From Escherichia coli (GTDB lineage: Bacteria; Pseudomonadota; Gammaproteobacteria; Enterobacterales; Enterobacteriaceae): 64,000 nucleotides of DNA. The translations under genes and the position numbers were made by a program. The notes under the pieces were generated by a model. That model was not told where the DNA came from. It saw only the letters and a program-made list of their open reading frames with translations, and ran no database searches. This document shows positions 21,717-47,358 of this stretch, piece by piece. How positions within the stretch are numbered: the first letter of the stretch is position 1; the number at the start of each line of letters is the position of its first letter. The stretch lies in the NCBI RefSeq assembly GCF_003334785.1, contig NZ_QOWV01000011.1; one strand, given 5' to 3'.

Positions 21717-23795
21717 TTAAATCAATGCCGATTTATCAATTCCCAGCCGCTTCATCCGTGACAGCAGGGTCGTGCGTTTCAGCCCCAGACGTTGCGCAGC
21801 GCCTTTAGGCCCGGCAACCACGCCGTTGGTTTCTTTCAGCACGCGCACAATCAACTGATATTCATCTTCGCCCTCCAGGGCGACAACCGTTGCGGCAGGC
21901 GGCGTTTCAGGTTCCGGTAAAACAATATCTGGCAATGACAGCTGCAGCACGTTACCGCGTGTTAGCAATACCGCGCGCTCAATGACGTTTTCCAGTTCGC
22001 GTACGTTACCCGGCCACTCCATGTTGCTCAAGGTGCGCAGCGTCTCGGCAGGAATGCTGTCGATATTGCGCCCCAGACGACGGGCAATTTTGAAGGTAAA
22101 GGCTTTCGCCAGCAGCGGAATATCTTCCGGACGCTCGCGTAGTGGCGGCAGGTGAATCGGGAATACGTTCAGGCGGTAATAGAGATCGCTACGGAACTCA
22201 CGGTCGGCGACCATTTTTTTCAGATCGCGGTTAGTCGCGGCGATTAGACGCACGTCCGTCTGAATGATTTTGTTGCTGCCGAGACGTTCAAACTCCTGTT
22301 CCTGCAATACACGCAGCAACTTCGGCTGTAACTCCAGTGGCATATCGCCCACTTCGTCGAGGAACAGGGAGCTTTTATCCGCCAGTTCAAAACGACCGAT
22401 ACGCTGGGCGCTGGCACCGGTAAAAGCCCCACGCTCATGACCAAACAGATCGCTTTCCAGCAATCCGGCAGGCATCGCCGCGCAGTTCATTTTGACCATG
22501 CGGCGATTATTACGCCCACTGAGATTATGGATCGCACGGGCAATCAGCTCTTTACCCGTGCCAGTTTCACCGAGGATCAGCACGGTACTGTCACTTTGCG
22601 CCACCATTTCAACTTGTTTAAGCACGCTGTACATGGCTTCGCTGCGGCCAATAATCTCGCCAAATTCACTATCAACATTGTTGAGCTGCTCGGTCAGGGC
22701 GAGGTTTTCATCAACCAGCCGTTCTTTCAGACGATGGATTTCCTGATAGGCGAGGGCGTTATCGACAGCGATTGCCACACGTTCGGCAATCTGGCGCAGT
22801 AAATTCAGATTGGTAGTGGTAAACACTTTCTCTTCGCATTGCGCCAGTTTCAGCACGCCCAGCATGGTGTCGCCAGACATCAGCGGTAACAGGCACAAGG
22901 TTTGAATCTGGTTGCCCCAGGTGTCGAACAACATGCGTTCATAGGGGGCTAAATCGTCCCGCTCGTGGAGATTGATCAGCAGCATCTCTTTACTTTTGAA
23001 CACGCGTTCGGTGAGGGTTCCGGCTTCATCGACTTCGCTCTGTTCGTGGGCGGGATGCTGTTTATCAAGATAGTGAGTGGAGTAGATGTTGAGTTTGTTT
23101 TTACGGTGGCTGCGTAAGACGATACTGATATCGTCAATGTCGAAATAGTAATGGATTTCTTTGGCGACTTCGCTGACCAGTTCGTCCATATCCAGGCGGG
23201 AAAGCACCGCGTTGGTGATGGCGACCAGGATGCGGAAGTTATCGCGTTCCCGGCATAACAACTCATAGTCGACATTGTTAACGACGCGGCTCTGGATTTG
23301 TTCGGTGACGACAGAAACGATCTGCGTAAATGTTTGCAGACGATTGAACTCTTTTTCGCTCCAGGGGCGATCGTCATAACGAATAAATTCACAGCCACCA
23401 AAAATATGCCCTTCCGCCGCCAGTGGCATCAGGCAATAGTGACCAAATTTTGGGTATAGCCCACCTGCGTCCAGCTGCGGCCAGGTTTCACAAAATTCTT
23501 CGTAACTGCAATGCAGCGTATCAGGGCGCGACAAAATGCTGCGTACCGGACCGTGTGCCAGAACAGTTTCGTCTTCATATTTAATGGGGGTGTCTTTTTC
23601 ACGCGACGCGTAATAAGACGCACGTTGAGTCTGCGCTTGCCACAACACAATAGCCGCGTTGTCGGCGAGCGCAGAACGCTTTACCAGTTGCGAAAGAGCC
23701 TCACACAGCGAGGCCAGATCGGGCTGCTGCAATAGTGTCCGAGTGATGTCGAACAACCCTTGTTGTCCGAGATCACTCATCGGTGTATATGACAT
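21717..23795 (-). CDS. fhlA: Formate hydrogenlyase transcriptional activator FhlA (sigma54-dependent enhancer-binding protein), 692 aa
   Basis: Start at the ATG giving MSYTPMSDLGQQ... (ORF track extends 12 codons upstream); AAA+ sigma54-interaction domain GETGTGKE...GAFTGA; C-terminal HTH. Confidence 0.93.
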   Translation of the reverse strand: MSYTPMSDLGQQGLFDITRTLLQQPDLASLCEALSQLVKRSALADNAAIVLWQAQTQRASYYASREKDTPIKYEDETVLAHGPVRSILSRPDTLHCSYEEFCETWPQLDAGGLYPKFGHYCLMPLAAEGHIFGGCEFIRYDDRPWSEKEFNRLQTFTQIVSVVTEQIQSRVVNNVDYELLCRERDNFRILVAITNAVLSRLDMDELVSEVAKEIHYYFDIDDISIVLRSHRKNKLNIYSTHYLDKQHPAHEQSEVDEAGTLTERVFKSKEMLLINLHERDDLAPYERMLFDTWGNQIQTLCLLPLMSGDTMLGVLKLAQCEEKVFTTTNLNLLRQIAERVAIAVDNALAYQEIHRLKERLVDENLALTEQLNNVDSEFGEIIGRSEAMYSVLKQVEMVAQSDSTVLILGETGTGKELIARAIHNLSGRNNRRMVKMNCAAMPAGLLESDLFGHERGAFTGASAQRIGRFELADKSSLFLDEVGDMPLELQPKLLRVLQEQEFERLGSNKIIQTDVRLIAATNRDLKKMVADREFRSDLYYRLNVFPIHLPPLRERPEDIPLLAKAFTFKIARRLGRNIDSIPAETLRTLSNMEWPGNVRELENVIERAVLLTRGNVLQLSLPDIVLPEPETPPAATVVALEGEDEYQLIVRVLKETNGVVAGPKGAAQRLGLKRTTLLSRMKRLGIDKSALI

Positions 23796-26269: not shown

Positions 26270-27132
26270 CGCTGTGTCTCCAGCCAGTTCAGCCACTGGT
26301 CCATCCCTTCGCCGCTGGTGGCGGAAATAAGGATGATTTCAATTTCTGGATTGACTTCGCGGGCGCAGGCGATGCACTTTTCAACGTCAAAGTTGAGATA
26401 CGGCAACAGGTCAACTTTGTTGAGCAGCATCAGCGAGGCGGCGGCAAACATATGCGGATATTTCAGCGGTTTGTCTTCACCTTCGGTAACGGAAAGCACC
26501 GCCACTTTGTGTTTTTCACCGAGATCGAAGCTGGCCGGGCATACGAGGTTGCCAACGTTTTCGATAAACAGAATACCGTTATCGTCCAGTGGCAGACGCG
26601 GTGCGGCGTCGGCAATCATCTGTGCGTCAAGATGGCAGCCTTTACCGGTGTTCACCTGAATCGCTGGTGTGCCGGTAGCGCGAATGCGTGCGGCATCGTT
26701 CACGGTTTGCTGGTCGCCTTCAATAACTGCGCACGGAACGCTGTCTTTCAGGCGCATTAGGGTTTCCGTCAGCAGGGTGGTTTTACCGGAACCAGGGCTG
26801 GAAACCAGGTTGAGCACCAGTTGCTTGCGGGCAGCAAAGCGCGCGCGGTTGCGTTCAGCCAGACGGTTATTTTTGTCCAGCACGTCAATTTCGACTTCCA
26901 GCATCCGACGCTGGCTCATGCCCGGTGCGTGAGTGCCCGCTTCGCCATGACCGTAATGCAGGTCGCCTTCTTCAGTCTGGCTGGGGGTAAATTCAGGCGC
27001 TTTAATGCCGGTGATTTTCATCTTCGGGCGTGCCGCCGGGGCAAATGGCGCGCTACGAAACGCGGAATGAGGGTTATGTTCATCACCCTCGATATACAGG
27101 TTGCCTTCACCGCAACCGCATGTTGTACACAT
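26260..27132 (-). CDS. hypB: [NiFe]-hydrogenase nickel-incorporation GTPase HypB, 290 aa
   Basis: N-terminal [10 protein letters not shown] metal-binding motif; P-loop GSGKTT. Confidence 0.95.
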
Positions 27133-27135
27133 CGC

Positions 27136-27486
27136 TCACTCCTGGTCTATTTCTATCCGCCGAATCTGTAAACCGTCGTCTGCCACAATCTGCAGCATGT
27201 CACCATGACACTGTGGACAGCGGCGGACGCGCTGGGTCAGTAGCGTCACATACTGTTGGCATGTTTCACACCAGCATTCGGCCTCTTGTTCTTCGAGGTG
27301 CAGTTTACAACCTTCCGCCACGCTGCCGCGGCAAACCAGATCAAAACAAAAGGCAAGAGAGCTGGTTTCGACACAAGAAAATGCGCCAATTTTGAGCCAG
27401 ACCCCAGTTACGCGTTTTGCGCCGTGTTTTGCGGCCTGCTGTTCGATCAATTCCAGTGCCCGTTGGCAGAGGGTTATTTCGTGCAT
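27136..27486 (-). CDS. hypA: [NiFe]-hydrogenase nickel-insertion protein HypA, 116 aa
   Basis: Start at the ATG giving MHEITLCQRALELIE...; zinc-binding CxxC...CxxC. Confidence 0.92.
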   Translation of the reverse strand: MHEITLCQRALELIEQQAAKHGAKRVTGVWLKIGAFSCVETSSLAFCFDLVCRGSVAEGCKLHLEEQEAECWCETCQQYVTLLTQRVRRCPQCHGDMLQIVADDGLQIRRIEIDQE

Positions 27487-27517
27487 ATCGCCTCCCATTA
27501 ACTATTGCCAGCTACAA

Positions 27518-27533
27518 GCAATAATTGTGCCAG
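27518..27533 (-). promoter_or_regulatory. sigma54 (-24/-12) promoter for the hyp operon: CTGGCACAATTATTGC on the minus strand
   Basis: GG-N10-GC with TGGCAC and TTGC elements, about 32 nt upstream of the hypA ATG. Confidence 0.7.
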
Positions 27534-27554
27534 TGTTGATTATCCCTGCGGTGA

Positions 27555-27606
27555 ATAATGTCGATGATGTCGAAATGACACGTCGACACGGCGACGAAAT
27601 TCATCT
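27555..27606. promoter_or_regulatory. Candidate FhlA upstream activating sequence between the divergent hyp and hyc promoters
   Basis: Cluster of repeated TGTCGA / CGACGAAAT motifs (ATGTCGATGATGTCGAAATGACACGTCGACACGGCGACGAAATTCA) between the two sigma54 promoters. Confidence 0.4.
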
Positions 27607-27645
27607 TTAGCTTAAAAATCTCTTTAATAACAATAAATTAAAAGT

Positions 27646-27661
27646 TGGCACAAAAAATGCT
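27646..27661 (+). promoter_or_regulatory. sigma54 (-24/-12) promoter for the hyc operon: TGGCACAAAAAATGCT
   Basis: GG-N10-GC with a TGGCAC -24 element, about 40 nt upstream of the hycA ATG. Confidence 0.7.
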
Positions 27662-27697
27662 TAAAGCTGGCATCTCTGTTAAACGGGTAACCTGACA

Positions 27698-28159
27698 ATG
27701 ACTATTTGGGAAATAAGCGAGAAAGCCGATTACATCGCACAGCGGCATCGTCGCCTACAGGACCAGTGGCACATCTACTGCAATTCGCTGGTTCAGGGGA
27801 TCACGTTATCGAAAGCGCGCCTGCATCACGCCATGAGCTGCGCGCCGGACAAAGAACTCTGTTTCGTCCTTTTTGAACATTTTCGCATTTACGTCACCCT
27901 GGCGGATGGCTTTAACAGCCACACCATCGAGTATTACGTCGAAACAAAAGATGGCGAAGACAAACAGCGGATTGCGCAGGCGCAACTGAGCATTGACGGC
28001 ATGATTGATGGCAAGGTCAACATCCGCGATCGCGAACAGGTTCTGGAACACTATCTCGAAAAAATCGCTGGCGTTTACGACAGCTTATACACCGCTATTG
28101 AAAACAATGTGCCGGTGAATTTAAGCCAACTGGTAAAGGGACAAAGCCCGGCAGCATGA
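27698..28159 (+). CDS. hycA: Formate hydrogenlyase regulatory protein HycA, 153 aa
   Basis: Translation MTIWEISEKADYIAQRHRRLQDQWHIYCNSL... Confidence 0.93.
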   Translation: MTIWEISEKADYIAQRHRRLQDQWHIYCNSLVQGITLSKARLHHAMSCAPDKELCFVLFEHFRIYVTLADGFNSHTIEYYVETKDGEDKQRIAQAQLSIDGMIDGKVNIRDREQVLEHYLEKIAGVYDSLYTAIENNVPVNLSQLVKGQSPAA

Positions 28160-28283
28160 GCTGAGGCTTTGCCCGTTTTGCAGGCGTTACGCCTGTTTGG
28201 GGATGGGCGTGTCGATGAGTGTCGAAAATGACATTTCATCGGCATGTTTTCGTCAAAAATGACAATCACCTGAGGAATGCCTG

Positions 28284-38865: not shown

Positions 38866-39879
38866 ATGATGACGACGATGCTGGAAGTGGCGAAGCGCGC
38901 CGGGGTTTCAAAAGCGACCGTTTCCCGCGTGCTTTCAGGTAATGGCTACGTCAGCCAGGAGACTAAAGATCGCGTGTTTCAGGCGGTAGAAGAGAGCGGT
39001 TACCGTCCAAACTTGCTGGCGCGCAATCTGTCGGCGAAGAGTACTCAGACGCTGGGGCTGGTAGTGACCAACACGCTTTACCACGGCATTTATTTTAGTG
39101 AATTACTCTTTCATGCCGCGCGAATGGCGGAAGAGAAAGGGCGGCAGTTGCTATTGGCAGATGGTAAACACAGCGCAGAAGAAGAGCGCCAGGCGATTCA
39201 GTATCTGCTGGATCTGCGCTGCGACGCGATCATGATTTACCCGCGTTTTTTAAGCGTGGATGAGATCGATGACATCATTGACGCGCACAGTCAGCCGATA
39301 ATGGTGCTTAATCGCCGCCTGCGCAAAAACAGCAGCCATAGCGTCTGGTGCGATCATAAACAGACCAGTTTTAACGCCGTGGCAGAGTTGATAAACGCCG
39401 GGCATCAGGAGATTGCTTTCCTTACCGGCTCGATGGATTCCCCCACCAGCATTGAACGTCTTGCCGGGTATAAAGACGCGCTGGCGCAGCATGGTATTGC
39501 GCTCAATGAAAAACTTATCGCTAACGGTAAATGGACGCCTGCCAGCGGGGCCGAAGGGGTAGAAATGTTGCTCGAACGTGGGGCTAAATTTAGCGCGTTA
39601 GTTGCCAGTAACGACGATATGGCGATAGGTGCGATGAAAGCGTTACACGAGCGCGGCGTAGCGGTGCCAGAGCAGGTGTCAGTTATCGGATTCGATGATA
39701 TCGCTATTGCCCCCTACACCGTTCCGGCGCTCTCCAGCGTAAAAATTCCGGTGACTGAGATGATTCAGGAAATTATTGGACGGCTGATTTTTATGCTCGA
39801 TGGCGGGGATTTCTCACCGCCGAAAACCTTCAGCGGAAAACTGATCCGCCGCGACTCACTCATTGCTCCTTCGCGATAA
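38866..39879 (+). CDS. ascG: LacI/GalR-family repressor of the asc operon, about 337 aa (start approximate: 38860, 38866 or 38869)
   Basis: HTH MTTMLEVAKRAGVSKATVSRVLSG plus periplasmic-binding-like domain; ORF-track start at 38803 lacks an RBS. Confidence 0.88.
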   Translation: MMTTMLEVAKRAGVSKATVSRVLSGNGYVSQETKDRVFQAVEESGYRPNLLARNLSAKSTQTLGLVVTNTLYHGIYFSELLFHAARMAEEKGRQLLLADGKHSAEEERQAIQYLLDLRCDAIMIYPRFLSVDEIDDIIDAHSQPIMVLNRRLRKNSSHSVWCDHKQTSFNAVAELINAGHQEIAFLTGSMDSPTSIERLAGYKDALAQHGIALNEKLIANGKWTPASGAEGVEMLLERGAKFSALVASNDDMAIGAMKALHERGVAVPEQVSVIGFDDIAIAPYTVPALSSVKIPVTEMIQEIIGRLIFMLDGGDFSPPKTFSGKLIRRDSLIAPSR

Positions 39880-40027
39880 ACATTGTCATCACATGTCATC
39901 GTCACTAGTGTCGATGACATCGTTTTTCCTGCATTACAGAAATTAATTTCCTTAAATAACAGTAAATTAAAAACTGGCATGATTTGTGAATGTATCGGCG
40001 CATTAACTGTCATTGCTGGAGAATTTG

Positions 40028-45703: not shown

Positions 45704-45719
45704 TTGCAGATTGCGTGCC
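45704..45719 (-). promoter_or_regulatory. sigma54 promoter for norVW: TGGCACGCAATCTGCA on the minus strand
   Basis: GG-N10-GC with TGGCAC and CTGCA elements, about 45 nt upstream of the norV start. Confidence 0.75.
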
Positions 45720-45775
45720 AGTTTTTTATCTGATTGTTTTTACTCTATAAATAAAATTATGCCCATTAATGAGTA

Positions 45776-45831
45776 GTCAAAATGACTATCAATCAAATGG
45801 TCGATATGACAATATCTATAGTCAAATTGAC
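45776..45831. promoter_or_regulatory. Three NorR enhancer sites, GT-N7-AC inverted repeats (GTCAAAATGAC, GTCGATATGAC, GTCAAATTGAC)
   Basis: Three evenly spaced GT-N7-AC palindromes at 45776, 45800 and 45821, upstream of norV and immediately upstream of the norR start. Confidence 0.75.
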
Positions 45832-45843
45832 AGTGAGGCAAAG

Positions 45844-47358
45844 ATGAGTTTTTCCGTTGATGTGCTGGCGAATATCGCCATCGAATTGCAGCGTGGGATT
45901 GGTCACCAGGATCGTTTTCAGCGCCTGATCACCACGCTACGTCAGGTGCTGGAGTGCGATGCGTCTGCGTTGCTACGTTACGATTCGCGGCAGTTTATTC
46001 CGCTTGCCATCGACGGTCTGGCAAAGGATGTACTCGGTAGACGCTTTGCGCTGGAAGGGCATCCACGGCTGGAAGCGATTGCCCGCGCCGGGGATGTGGT
46101 GCGCTTTCCCGCAGACAGCGAATTGCCCGATCCCTATGACGGTTTGATTCCTGGGCAGGAGAGTCTGAAGGTTCACGCCTGCGTTGGTCTGCCATTGTTT
46201 GCCGGGCAAAACCTGATCGGCGCACTGACGCTCGACGGGATGCAGCCCGATCAGTTCGATGTTTTCAGCGACGAAGAGCTACGGCTGATTGCTGCGCTGG
46301 CGGCGGGAGCGTTAAGCAATGCGTTGCTGATTGAACAACTGGAAAGCCAGAATATGCTGCCAGGCGATGCCACGCCGTTTGAAGCGGTGAAACAGACGCA
46401 GATGATTGGCTTGTCCCCTGGCATGACGCAACTGAAAAAAGAGATTGAGATTGTGGCGGCGTCCGATCTCAACGTCCTGATCAGCGGTGAGACTGGAACC
46501 GGTAAGGAGCTGGTGGCGAAAGCGATTCATGAAGCCTCGCCACGGGCGGTGAATCCGCTGGTCTATCTCAACTGTGCTGCACTGCCGGAAAGTGTGGCGG
46601 AAAGTGAGTTGTTCGGGCATGTGAAAGGAGCGTTTACTGGCGCTATCAGTAATCGCAGCGGGAAGTTTGAAATGGCGGATAACGGCACGCTGTTTCTGGA
46701 TGAGATCGGCGAGTTGTCGTTGGCATTGCAGGCCAAGCTGCTGAGGGTGTTGCAGTATGGCGATATTCAGCGCGTTGGCGATGACCGTTGTTTGCGGGTC
46801 GATGTGCGCGTGCTGGCGGCGACTAACCGCGATTTACGCGAAGAGGTGCTGGCAGGGCGATTCCGCGCCGATTTGTTTCATCGCCTGAGCGTGTTTCCAC
46901 TTTCGGTGCCGCCGCTGCGTGAGCGGGGCGATGATGTCATTCTGCTGGCGGGGTATTTCTGCGAGCAGTGTCGTTTGCGGCAGGGGCTCTCCCGCGTGGT
47001 ATTAAGTGCCGGAGCGCGAAATTTACTGCAACACTACAGTTTTCCGGGAAACGTGCGCGAACTGGAACATGCTATTCATCGGGCGGTAGTTCTGGCGAGA
47101 GCCACCCGCAGCGGCGATGAAGTGATTCTTGAGGCGCAACATTTTGCTTTTCCTGAGGTGACGTTGCCGACGCCAGAAGTGGCGGCGGTGCCCGTTGTTA
47201 AGCAAAACCTGCGTGAAGCGACAGAAGCGTTCCAGCGTGAAACTATTCGTCAGGCACTGGCACAAAATCATCACAACTGGGCTGCCTGCGCGCGGATGCT
47301 GGAAACCGACGTCGCCAACCTGCATCGGCTGGCGAAACGTCTGGGATTGAAGGATTAA
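45844..47358 (+). CDS. norR: NO-responsive sigma54-dependent activator NorR, 504 aa
   Basis: Start at the ATG giving [18 protein letters not shown] (ORF track starts 25 codons upstream, across the NorR sites); GAF, AAA+ (GETGTGKE) and HTH domains. Confidence 0.92.

Follow-up and report, generated by a model that had tools for sequence, protein, structure and literature searches.

Descriptions of the promoters of the Escherichia coli formate regulon, of their activator and of the host factor that they require go back to 1990-1994, and genome-wide maps of sigma-54 binding exist. For the divergent hyp and hyc operons of this regulon an FhlA footprint and formate-dependent activation are reported; the site lying between the two operons reportedly activates hyc, while a site between hycA and hycB reportedly activates hyp. 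The older literature on the locus, together with a later review, is said to be the source both of the assignment of this distal site to hyp and of the IHF and FhlA footprints. In the zraP/zraSR pair, a further case of back-to-back sigma-54 promoters, a single central ZraR enhancer is said to serve both promoters. The promoters of the hyp/hyc locus also appear in the title of a paper cited elsewhere for it, "Characterization of divergent NtrA-dependent promoters..." (Lutz et al. 1990, Mol Microbiol 4:13).

We analyzed a 64-kb stretch of E. coli DNA (referred to as the window) in which positions 27100-28200 are 100% identical to the hypA/hycA stretch of E. coli K-12 MG1655, a sequence found in all 5,426 of 5,426 complete E. 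coli genomes. The locus is the long-studied hypA-hycA control region of the formate regulon. An earlier reading made from the letters of the window (the sequence-only reading), which had noticed here a divergent sigma-54 promoter pair with a repeat-rich enhancer in between, was a correct but ordinary observation of something already known. The region is a compact textbook example of bacterial transcription that depends on an enhancer, with the genes of an activator and its antagonist on either side, and it has little weight as a discovery. Only three features are mildly new: the helical-turn spacing steps on both sides of the intergenic enhancer (UAS1), a module common to hyc and hydN, and the invariance of a second enhancer copy (UAS2).

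Genes and conservation of the locus

The interval 27487-27697 is the entire hypA/hycA spacer (211 bp). The genes relevant for its interpretation are:

27136-27486, minus strand: hypA coding sequence, first gene of hypABCDE(-fhlA), as annotated by RefSeq in the identical MG1655 stretch
27698-28159, plus strand: hycA, coding for the FhlA antagonist (RefSeq annotation; NCBIfam NF007567, 301 bits), first gene of hycABCDEFGHI
21717-23795, minus strand: fhlA, coding for the formate-responsive sigma-54 activator, an enhancer-binding protein of the AAA+ class (NCBIfam NF011958, 1545 bits, cut-off 830), following hypE in the direction of hyp

According to the RefSeq annotation hypBCDE run on leftward from hypA, and hycB and the following genes run rightward from hycA. 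The divergent genes, with hypA on the minus and hycA on the plus strand, are therefore those of the hyp and hyc operons, as had been proposed.

A scan with HycA, in which one genome per species was taken, gave 80 related loci from about 20 enterobacterial genera (n=81 with E. coli included). hypA and hycA are divergent in all 80 related loci and are separated by spacers of 188-223 nt. The conserved blocks of these spacers are both -24/-12 elements, the core of UAS1, an A+T-rich element directly next to the hyc -24 element, the hypA Shine-Dalgarno region and the entire hycA leader. Both promoters and the repeat core of UAS1 are kept in all 81 sequences, and the stretch from the hyp -24 element to UAS1 is not conserved in sequence in this same set of about 20 genera.

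Two opposed sigma-54 promoters

The spacer contains two -24/-12 elements pointing in opposite directions, from which the transcription starts were predicted by placing +1 12 nt past the C of the -12 GC:

27533 to 27517, minus strand: hyp sigma-54 promoter, -24/-12 element CTGGCACAATTATTGCT, with GG at 27531-27530 and GC at 27519-27518
27645-27661, plus strand: hyc sigma-54 promoter, -24/-12 element TTGGCACAAAAAATGCT, with GG at 27647-27648 and GC at 27659-27660
27506, minus strand: predicted hyp transcription start, placed from the promoter position, with a 20-nt leader
27672-27697, plus strand: predicted hyc transcription start (27672), placed from the -12 position, and the strongly conserved 26-nt hycA leader

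The GG-N10-GC spacing is exact in both elements, and it lies within a TGGCAC-N5-TTGCW context. The only perfect match to TGGCAC-N5-TTGC in the window is the hyp element, and the hyc element has one mismatch. When up to two mismatches were allowed the pattern was not enriched in the window (75 matches versus 91 +/- 10 in shuffles); such a loose pattern is no commoner than in shuffles and therefore uninformative, so we used a position weight matrix (PWM) instead. This was built from 38 intergenic E. coli sigma-54 ChIP-seq sites (PMC4591121 Table 1), with the four sites of the window excluded. The hyp element (score 21.18) ranked first among approximately 128,000 positions, above the best score in all 200 shuffles (highest 20.76) and above every site of the training set (highest 18.92). 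The hyc element (17.23) ranked third in the window, the mean of the shuffle maxima being 14.67 (sd 1.76), and the second rank was taken by the norV site (45705-45721, minus strand; 18.16). Conservation of the two elements is complete: the hyp promoter scores at least 16.5 in all 81 sequences, and the hyc promoter is present in all 81 with a median score of 15.4.

Both sequences are also found among published sigma-54 ChIP-seq sites of E. coli, in which they are listed as confirmed promoters (PMC4591121 Table 1): OS28 (hypA) is the top intergenic site with a fold-above-threshold of 201, and OS27 (hycA) has a value of 91. In Salmonella, ChIP-chip gave the orthologous pair of sigma-54 sites at the same 114-bp offset. 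Both sigma-54 promoters are thus real and, according to the published ChIP experiments in E. coli and Salmonella, occupied by sigma-54 in vivo. The two GG-N10-GC elements had been claimed from the sequence at these same coordinates, with an RpoN matrix scan proposed as the check, and the claim was borne out by the scan as well as by the published sites.

The predicted leaders of 20 nt (hypA) and 26 nt (hycA) agree with the distances to the start codons given in PMC4591121 Table 1, and the two predicted starts are 166 bp apart. Scans of the region for sigma-70 promoters and for terminators gave no signal above chance. The hycA leader itself (ATCTCTGTTAAACGGGTAACCTGACA, 27672-27697) is conserved beyond the needs of a ribosome-binding site alone, and it has no match in Rfam. 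A further sigma-54-like motif, GTGGCACATCTACTGCA, is situated inside hycA (27766-27782, plus strand; score 16.13, rank 4). We do not take it for a promoter of its own, since the conserved codons Q-W-H/R-x-Y-C-N explain the motif, the two Cys codons both being in use in different genera, and published ChIP-seq lists no peak there (PMC4591121). It is probably a by-product of coding.

The intergenic enhancer and its second copy

Two clusters of putative FhlA half-sites are found near these promoters:

27558-27600, both strands: UAS1, FhlA-type half-site cluster ATGTCGATGATGTCGAAATGACACGTCGACACGGCGACGAAAT, with a conserved core, half-sites common to fdhF and hydN, and a near-duplicate at 28210
28210-28264, both strands: UAS2, second FhlA-type enhancer copy TGTCGATGAGTGTCGAAAATGACA...TTTCGTCAAAAATGACA in the hycA-hycB spacer, with a 22/24-nt match to UAS1

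UAS1 is made of TGTCGA at 27559 and 27568, CGAAAT at 27571, TCGACA at 27583, which is the inverted partner of TGTCGA at 27568, and CGACGAAAT at 27592. The cluster of TGTCGA/CGACGAAAT repeats that had been noticed between the promoters is thus present at the positions claimed, and its core, [AG]TGWCGA-N3-TGWCGAAATGACAYGTC, is conserved across genera. UAS1 is located between both promoters in all 81 sequences. The half-site of the opposite strand is ATTTCGWC, and half-sites of the ATTTCGWC/TGWCGA type are common to UAS1, UAS2 and the upstream regions of fdhF and hydN, the fdhF region having the same words in the form TATTTCGTTTCGTCACGTCAAAACTGACGACA...TTTTTCGTCA. In a part of UAS1 (27568-27588) and its orthologues we observed a dyad TGWCGA-N9-TCGWCA whose arms covary: 19 sequences have TGTCGA/TCGACA, 18 have TGACGA/TCGTCA and six are mixed, a pattern that likely reflects few independent events.

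The three densest half-site windows in the 64 kb are those at hydN, UAS2 and UAS1. Their density of 4-5 half-sites per 60 nt is, however, not above the shuffle maximum (up to 6), and since density alone does not exceed shuffles the case for an enhancer rests on exact duplication, conservation and location. The block TGTCGATGA(N)TGTCGAAA(N)TGACA, 22-24 nt long, occurs in the window only at 27559 and 28210, with no occurrence expected. A review gives a 16-bp FhlA consensus, CATTTCGTACGAAATG, which has no match with up to three mismatches in the window; at up to five mismatches UAS2 appears and UAS1 is absent. This mismatch counts little against membership among FhlA enhancers because the quoted consensus discriminates poorly, and since it misses these natural sites we relied instead on empirical similarity of half-sites. 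By that similarity the repeats of UAS1 resemble the FhlA enhancers of the formate regulon, and we regard them as putative FhlA sites.

UAS2 ends 20 nt upstream of the hycB start codon and lies approximately 730 bp upstream of the predicted hyp start. It is better conserved than UAS1: its TTTCGTCAAAAATGAC is invariant in all 22 representative sequences from about 20 genera, and TGTCGA is retained in nearly all of them, with TGACGA in Pseudenterobacter. In a published strain hycA was replaced by an fdhF-hycB fusion, and expression from the native promoter was poor. Such a strain should also have lost UAS2, so that the poor expression gives a weak and indirect hint that the hycA-hycB region matters.

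In relation to the promoters, the center of UAS1 is at about -93 from the predicted hyc start, which is typical of the regulon, and its edge is 45 nt from the hyc TGGCA. Toward hyp the center is at about -73 from the predicted start and the edge is 26 nt from TGGCA, with no IHF-like site in between.

A one-sided bend site and enhancer-promoter spacing

The stretch between UAS1 and the hyc promoter is composed of two parts:

27601-27627, no strand: A+T-rich spacer, variable in sequence and constrained in length
27628-27640, plus strand: IHF-like core TAACAATAAATTA, one mismatch to WATCAANNNNTTR, beginning 18 nt before the hyc TGGCA

In E. coli the IHF-like core thus has one mismatch and is unusually near the -24 element. 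The GC content is 28-30% across 27590-27679, the hyc-side stretch which includes this core. Of the 81 sequences, 27 carry a perfect core at the orthologous position and another 25 a core with one mismatch, and no perfect WATCAANNNNTTR is found elsewhere in the 81 spacers on either strand. Its position relative to the promoter is almost fixed: the core begins 18 nt before the hyc TGGCA, and its C is 16 nt away from the hyc -24 GG, in all sequences except those of Kluyvera (19 and 17 nt, respectively). The core and the -24 element together form a 25-nt module, AATAACARTAAATTAAAANNTGGCA, present in the window in exactly two copies, at hyc and at hydN, where none would be expected by chance, and the hyp side has no equivalent of this module. 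We therefore consider it a candidate IHF bend site present on the hyc side only. Its presence fits the remark, made from the sequence, that a bending-protein site in between could determine which of the promoters is favored; what was found to support it is the candidate site and its one-sided position.

Within Escherichia the stretch from UAS1 to the IHF-like core diverges strongly, and the whole spacer nevertheless stays at 211-212 nt. When 27601-27627 was compared with four other Escherichia loci (L004, L005, L006 and L063), approximately half of the positions differed between lineages with the length kept. This suggests either recombination or a relaxed constraint on sequence together with a constrained length.

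Distances between enhancer and promoters were measured in the 81 sequences from an anchor in the GAAATGACA core of UAS1. The distance from the anchor to the hyc -24 GG is 45, 56-59 or 67-68 nt, that to the hyp -24 GG is 47-49 or 58-60 nt, and the promoter-to-promoter distance is 94, 104-105 or 114-118 nt. On both sides of UAS1 the spacing consequently changes in steps of approximately 10-11 nt, which is about one helical turn. They go together with the gain or loss of half-site units about 10 nt long, and may be due to repeat slippage as much as to selection on phase. Independent events are few: toward hyc we count at least about four, toward hyp about two. The hyc-side steps fit looping that depends on the face of the helix and binding of FhlA to one face; FhlA is described to bind one face of DNA (PMC11291172).

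Assignment of enhancers to promoters

Before the enhancers are assigned, a reading has to be considered in which the region is not a pair of promoters, the two motifs being chance matches or the symmetry of the region representing a DNA cruciform or an RNA structure. Positions 27506-27532 and 27646-27672 form a 27-nt inverted repeat with arms 81% complementary, which extends past the promoter consensus into AGCTGGCA around the predicted starts. Apart from this complementarity, such a reading could call upon the fold of 27500-27680 as single-stranded DNA (z-score -5.5) and upon the loose promoter pattern, which as stated above is not enriched in the window. Symmetry is, however, what is expected from two opposed copies of one promoter consensus, and 113 nt separate the arms. 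Beyond the consensus, the repeat lacks conservation in genera other than Escherichia: the AGCTGGCA extension follows both -12 elements only in this genus, and its hyp-side copy is absent in the others. A search of the region against Rfam gave no match. As both sites are bound by sigma-54 in vivo (ChIP) and conservation also contradicts it, we regard this explanation as extremely improbable.

It is considerably harder to decide how the two promoters share their enhancers. The sequence-only reading held that one enhancer region serves both operons. Part of this stands, because UAS1 is found between the two promoters in every one of the 81 sequences. A shared enhancer would also require that neither promoter has a further one at hand, which is contradicted by UAS2, a near-duplicate that is invariant across genera. 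In its full form, with FhlA at UAS1 activating both promoters and UAS2 being redundant or otherwise used (for boosting hyc or controlling hycB), a single shared enhancer would be in accordance with the central position of UAS1. It is also slightly favored by the quantized spacing on the hyp side and the matching classes of promoter separation, which suggest that phase is kept on both sides. The zraP/zraSR pair offers a precedent in its reportedly shared central ZraR site. The promoter separation of that pair is also similar (motif centers 154 bp apart, PMC4591121). Against this, a second and better conserved copy exists, the UAS1 edge is only 26 nt from the hyp TGGCA as compared to 45-52 nt at hyc, hydN and fdhF, the hyp side is without a bend site, and the steps in spacing track gain and loss of half-sites, so that slippage in a few independent events could explain them. 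In the literature, moreover, hyp is reportedly assigned to the distal site. The claim of a single enhancer is thus unproven, since UAS2 exists and earlier papers reportedly connect UAS1 with hyc and UAS2 with hyp, and we consider it rather unlikely. Some sharing of UAS1 is nevertheless possible because its distance to hyp also changes by approximately 10-11 bp.

The reading that we prefer, and which seems to us fairly probable, is the established one: two promoters, FhlA at UAS1 for hyc with the help of an IHF bend, and UAS2 mainly for hyp. Here the start sites and the binding of IHF and FhlA are predicted from the sequence, and the assignment of each enhancer follows what is reportedly known. 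According to this established model, sigma-54 RNA polymerase would wait in closed complexes on both divergent promoters. FhlA activated by formate, which is itself encoded last in the hyp transcription unit, would bind the array of TGWCGA/TGACA half-sites and use ATP to open these complexes. UAS1 would be the hyc enhancer, folded onto the hyc promoter by an IHF-type bend just upstream of the hyc -24 element. The hyp promoter, which is without a bend site, would be driven mainly by UAS2 with a possible contribution of UAS1. Since the two operons make HycA, a negative, and FhlA, a positive regulator, the region would be a node of two feedback loops.

An extension of this model, which we find doubtful, is that UAS1 is stereospecifically coupled to both promoters in one looped unit with two enhancers and two promoters, where FhlA bound to both enhancers, together with a single IHF bend, would apportion activation between hyp and hyc. 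If this were true, such a unit would balance hyp, with fhlA as positive feedback, against hyc, with hycA as negative feedback, and the signature of a looped two-enhancer architecture would be seen in the whole-turn spacings conserved in about 20 genera. Independently of this, the comparative data (the helical-turn spacings, the fixed bend site on one side and the invariant UAS2) could aid re-engineering of hydrogen production, and they define a clean test of one activator shared between two promoters.

Comparison with known systems

The closest described system is the locus itself. The divergent NtrA (sigma-54) promoters of E. coli hyc and hyp have the same location and the same sequence, the 17-mers being those confirmed in PMC4591121, and we observed no difference.

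Among other members of the regulon, the hydN-hypF promoter (39873-39990) is the most similar to hyc. It has an enhancer of TGTCA/TGTCGA half-sites centered near -100, followed by the identical 25-nt module described above, and its enhancer edge is 52 nt from TGGCA. It differs in being unidirectional and in having a weaker -12 element (GTGAA). The entire promoter architecture was apparently duplicated within the regulon, as judged from hydN-hypF and hyc. The fdhF gene likewise has an enhancer edge 52 nt from TGGCA. Its sigma-54 promoter is GTGGCATAAAAGATGCA, and the ATTTCGT/TTTCGTCA half-sites upstream of it include CGTCAAAACTGACG, similar to TGTCGAAAATGACA and CGTCAAAAATGACA of UAS2. In contrast to hyp/hyc, fdhF is unidirectional and has no IHF-like core beside the -24 element.

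Two divergent regions outside the regulon can also be compared. The norR-norVW region, situated in the same window (45705-45721, minus strand), has a sigma-54 promoter, a divergent neighbor and upstream activator sites. Its sigma-54 promoter, that of norV, is CTGGCACGCAATCTGCA, and with it the 64 kb contain another enhancer-dependent divergent region. The divergent 529-aa open reading frame beside it (45769-47358, plus strand) is presumably norR. Just one of its two divergent promoters is a sigma-54 promoter, however, and the activator is NorR with the site GT-N7-AC. The zraP/zraSR pair has, as hyp/hyc does, back-to-back sigma-54 promoters at a distance of approximately 150 bp (motif centers from PMC4591121), the activator sites lying in between. 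The hyp/hyc region differs from it in possessing a second copy of the enhancer and a bend site on one side only.
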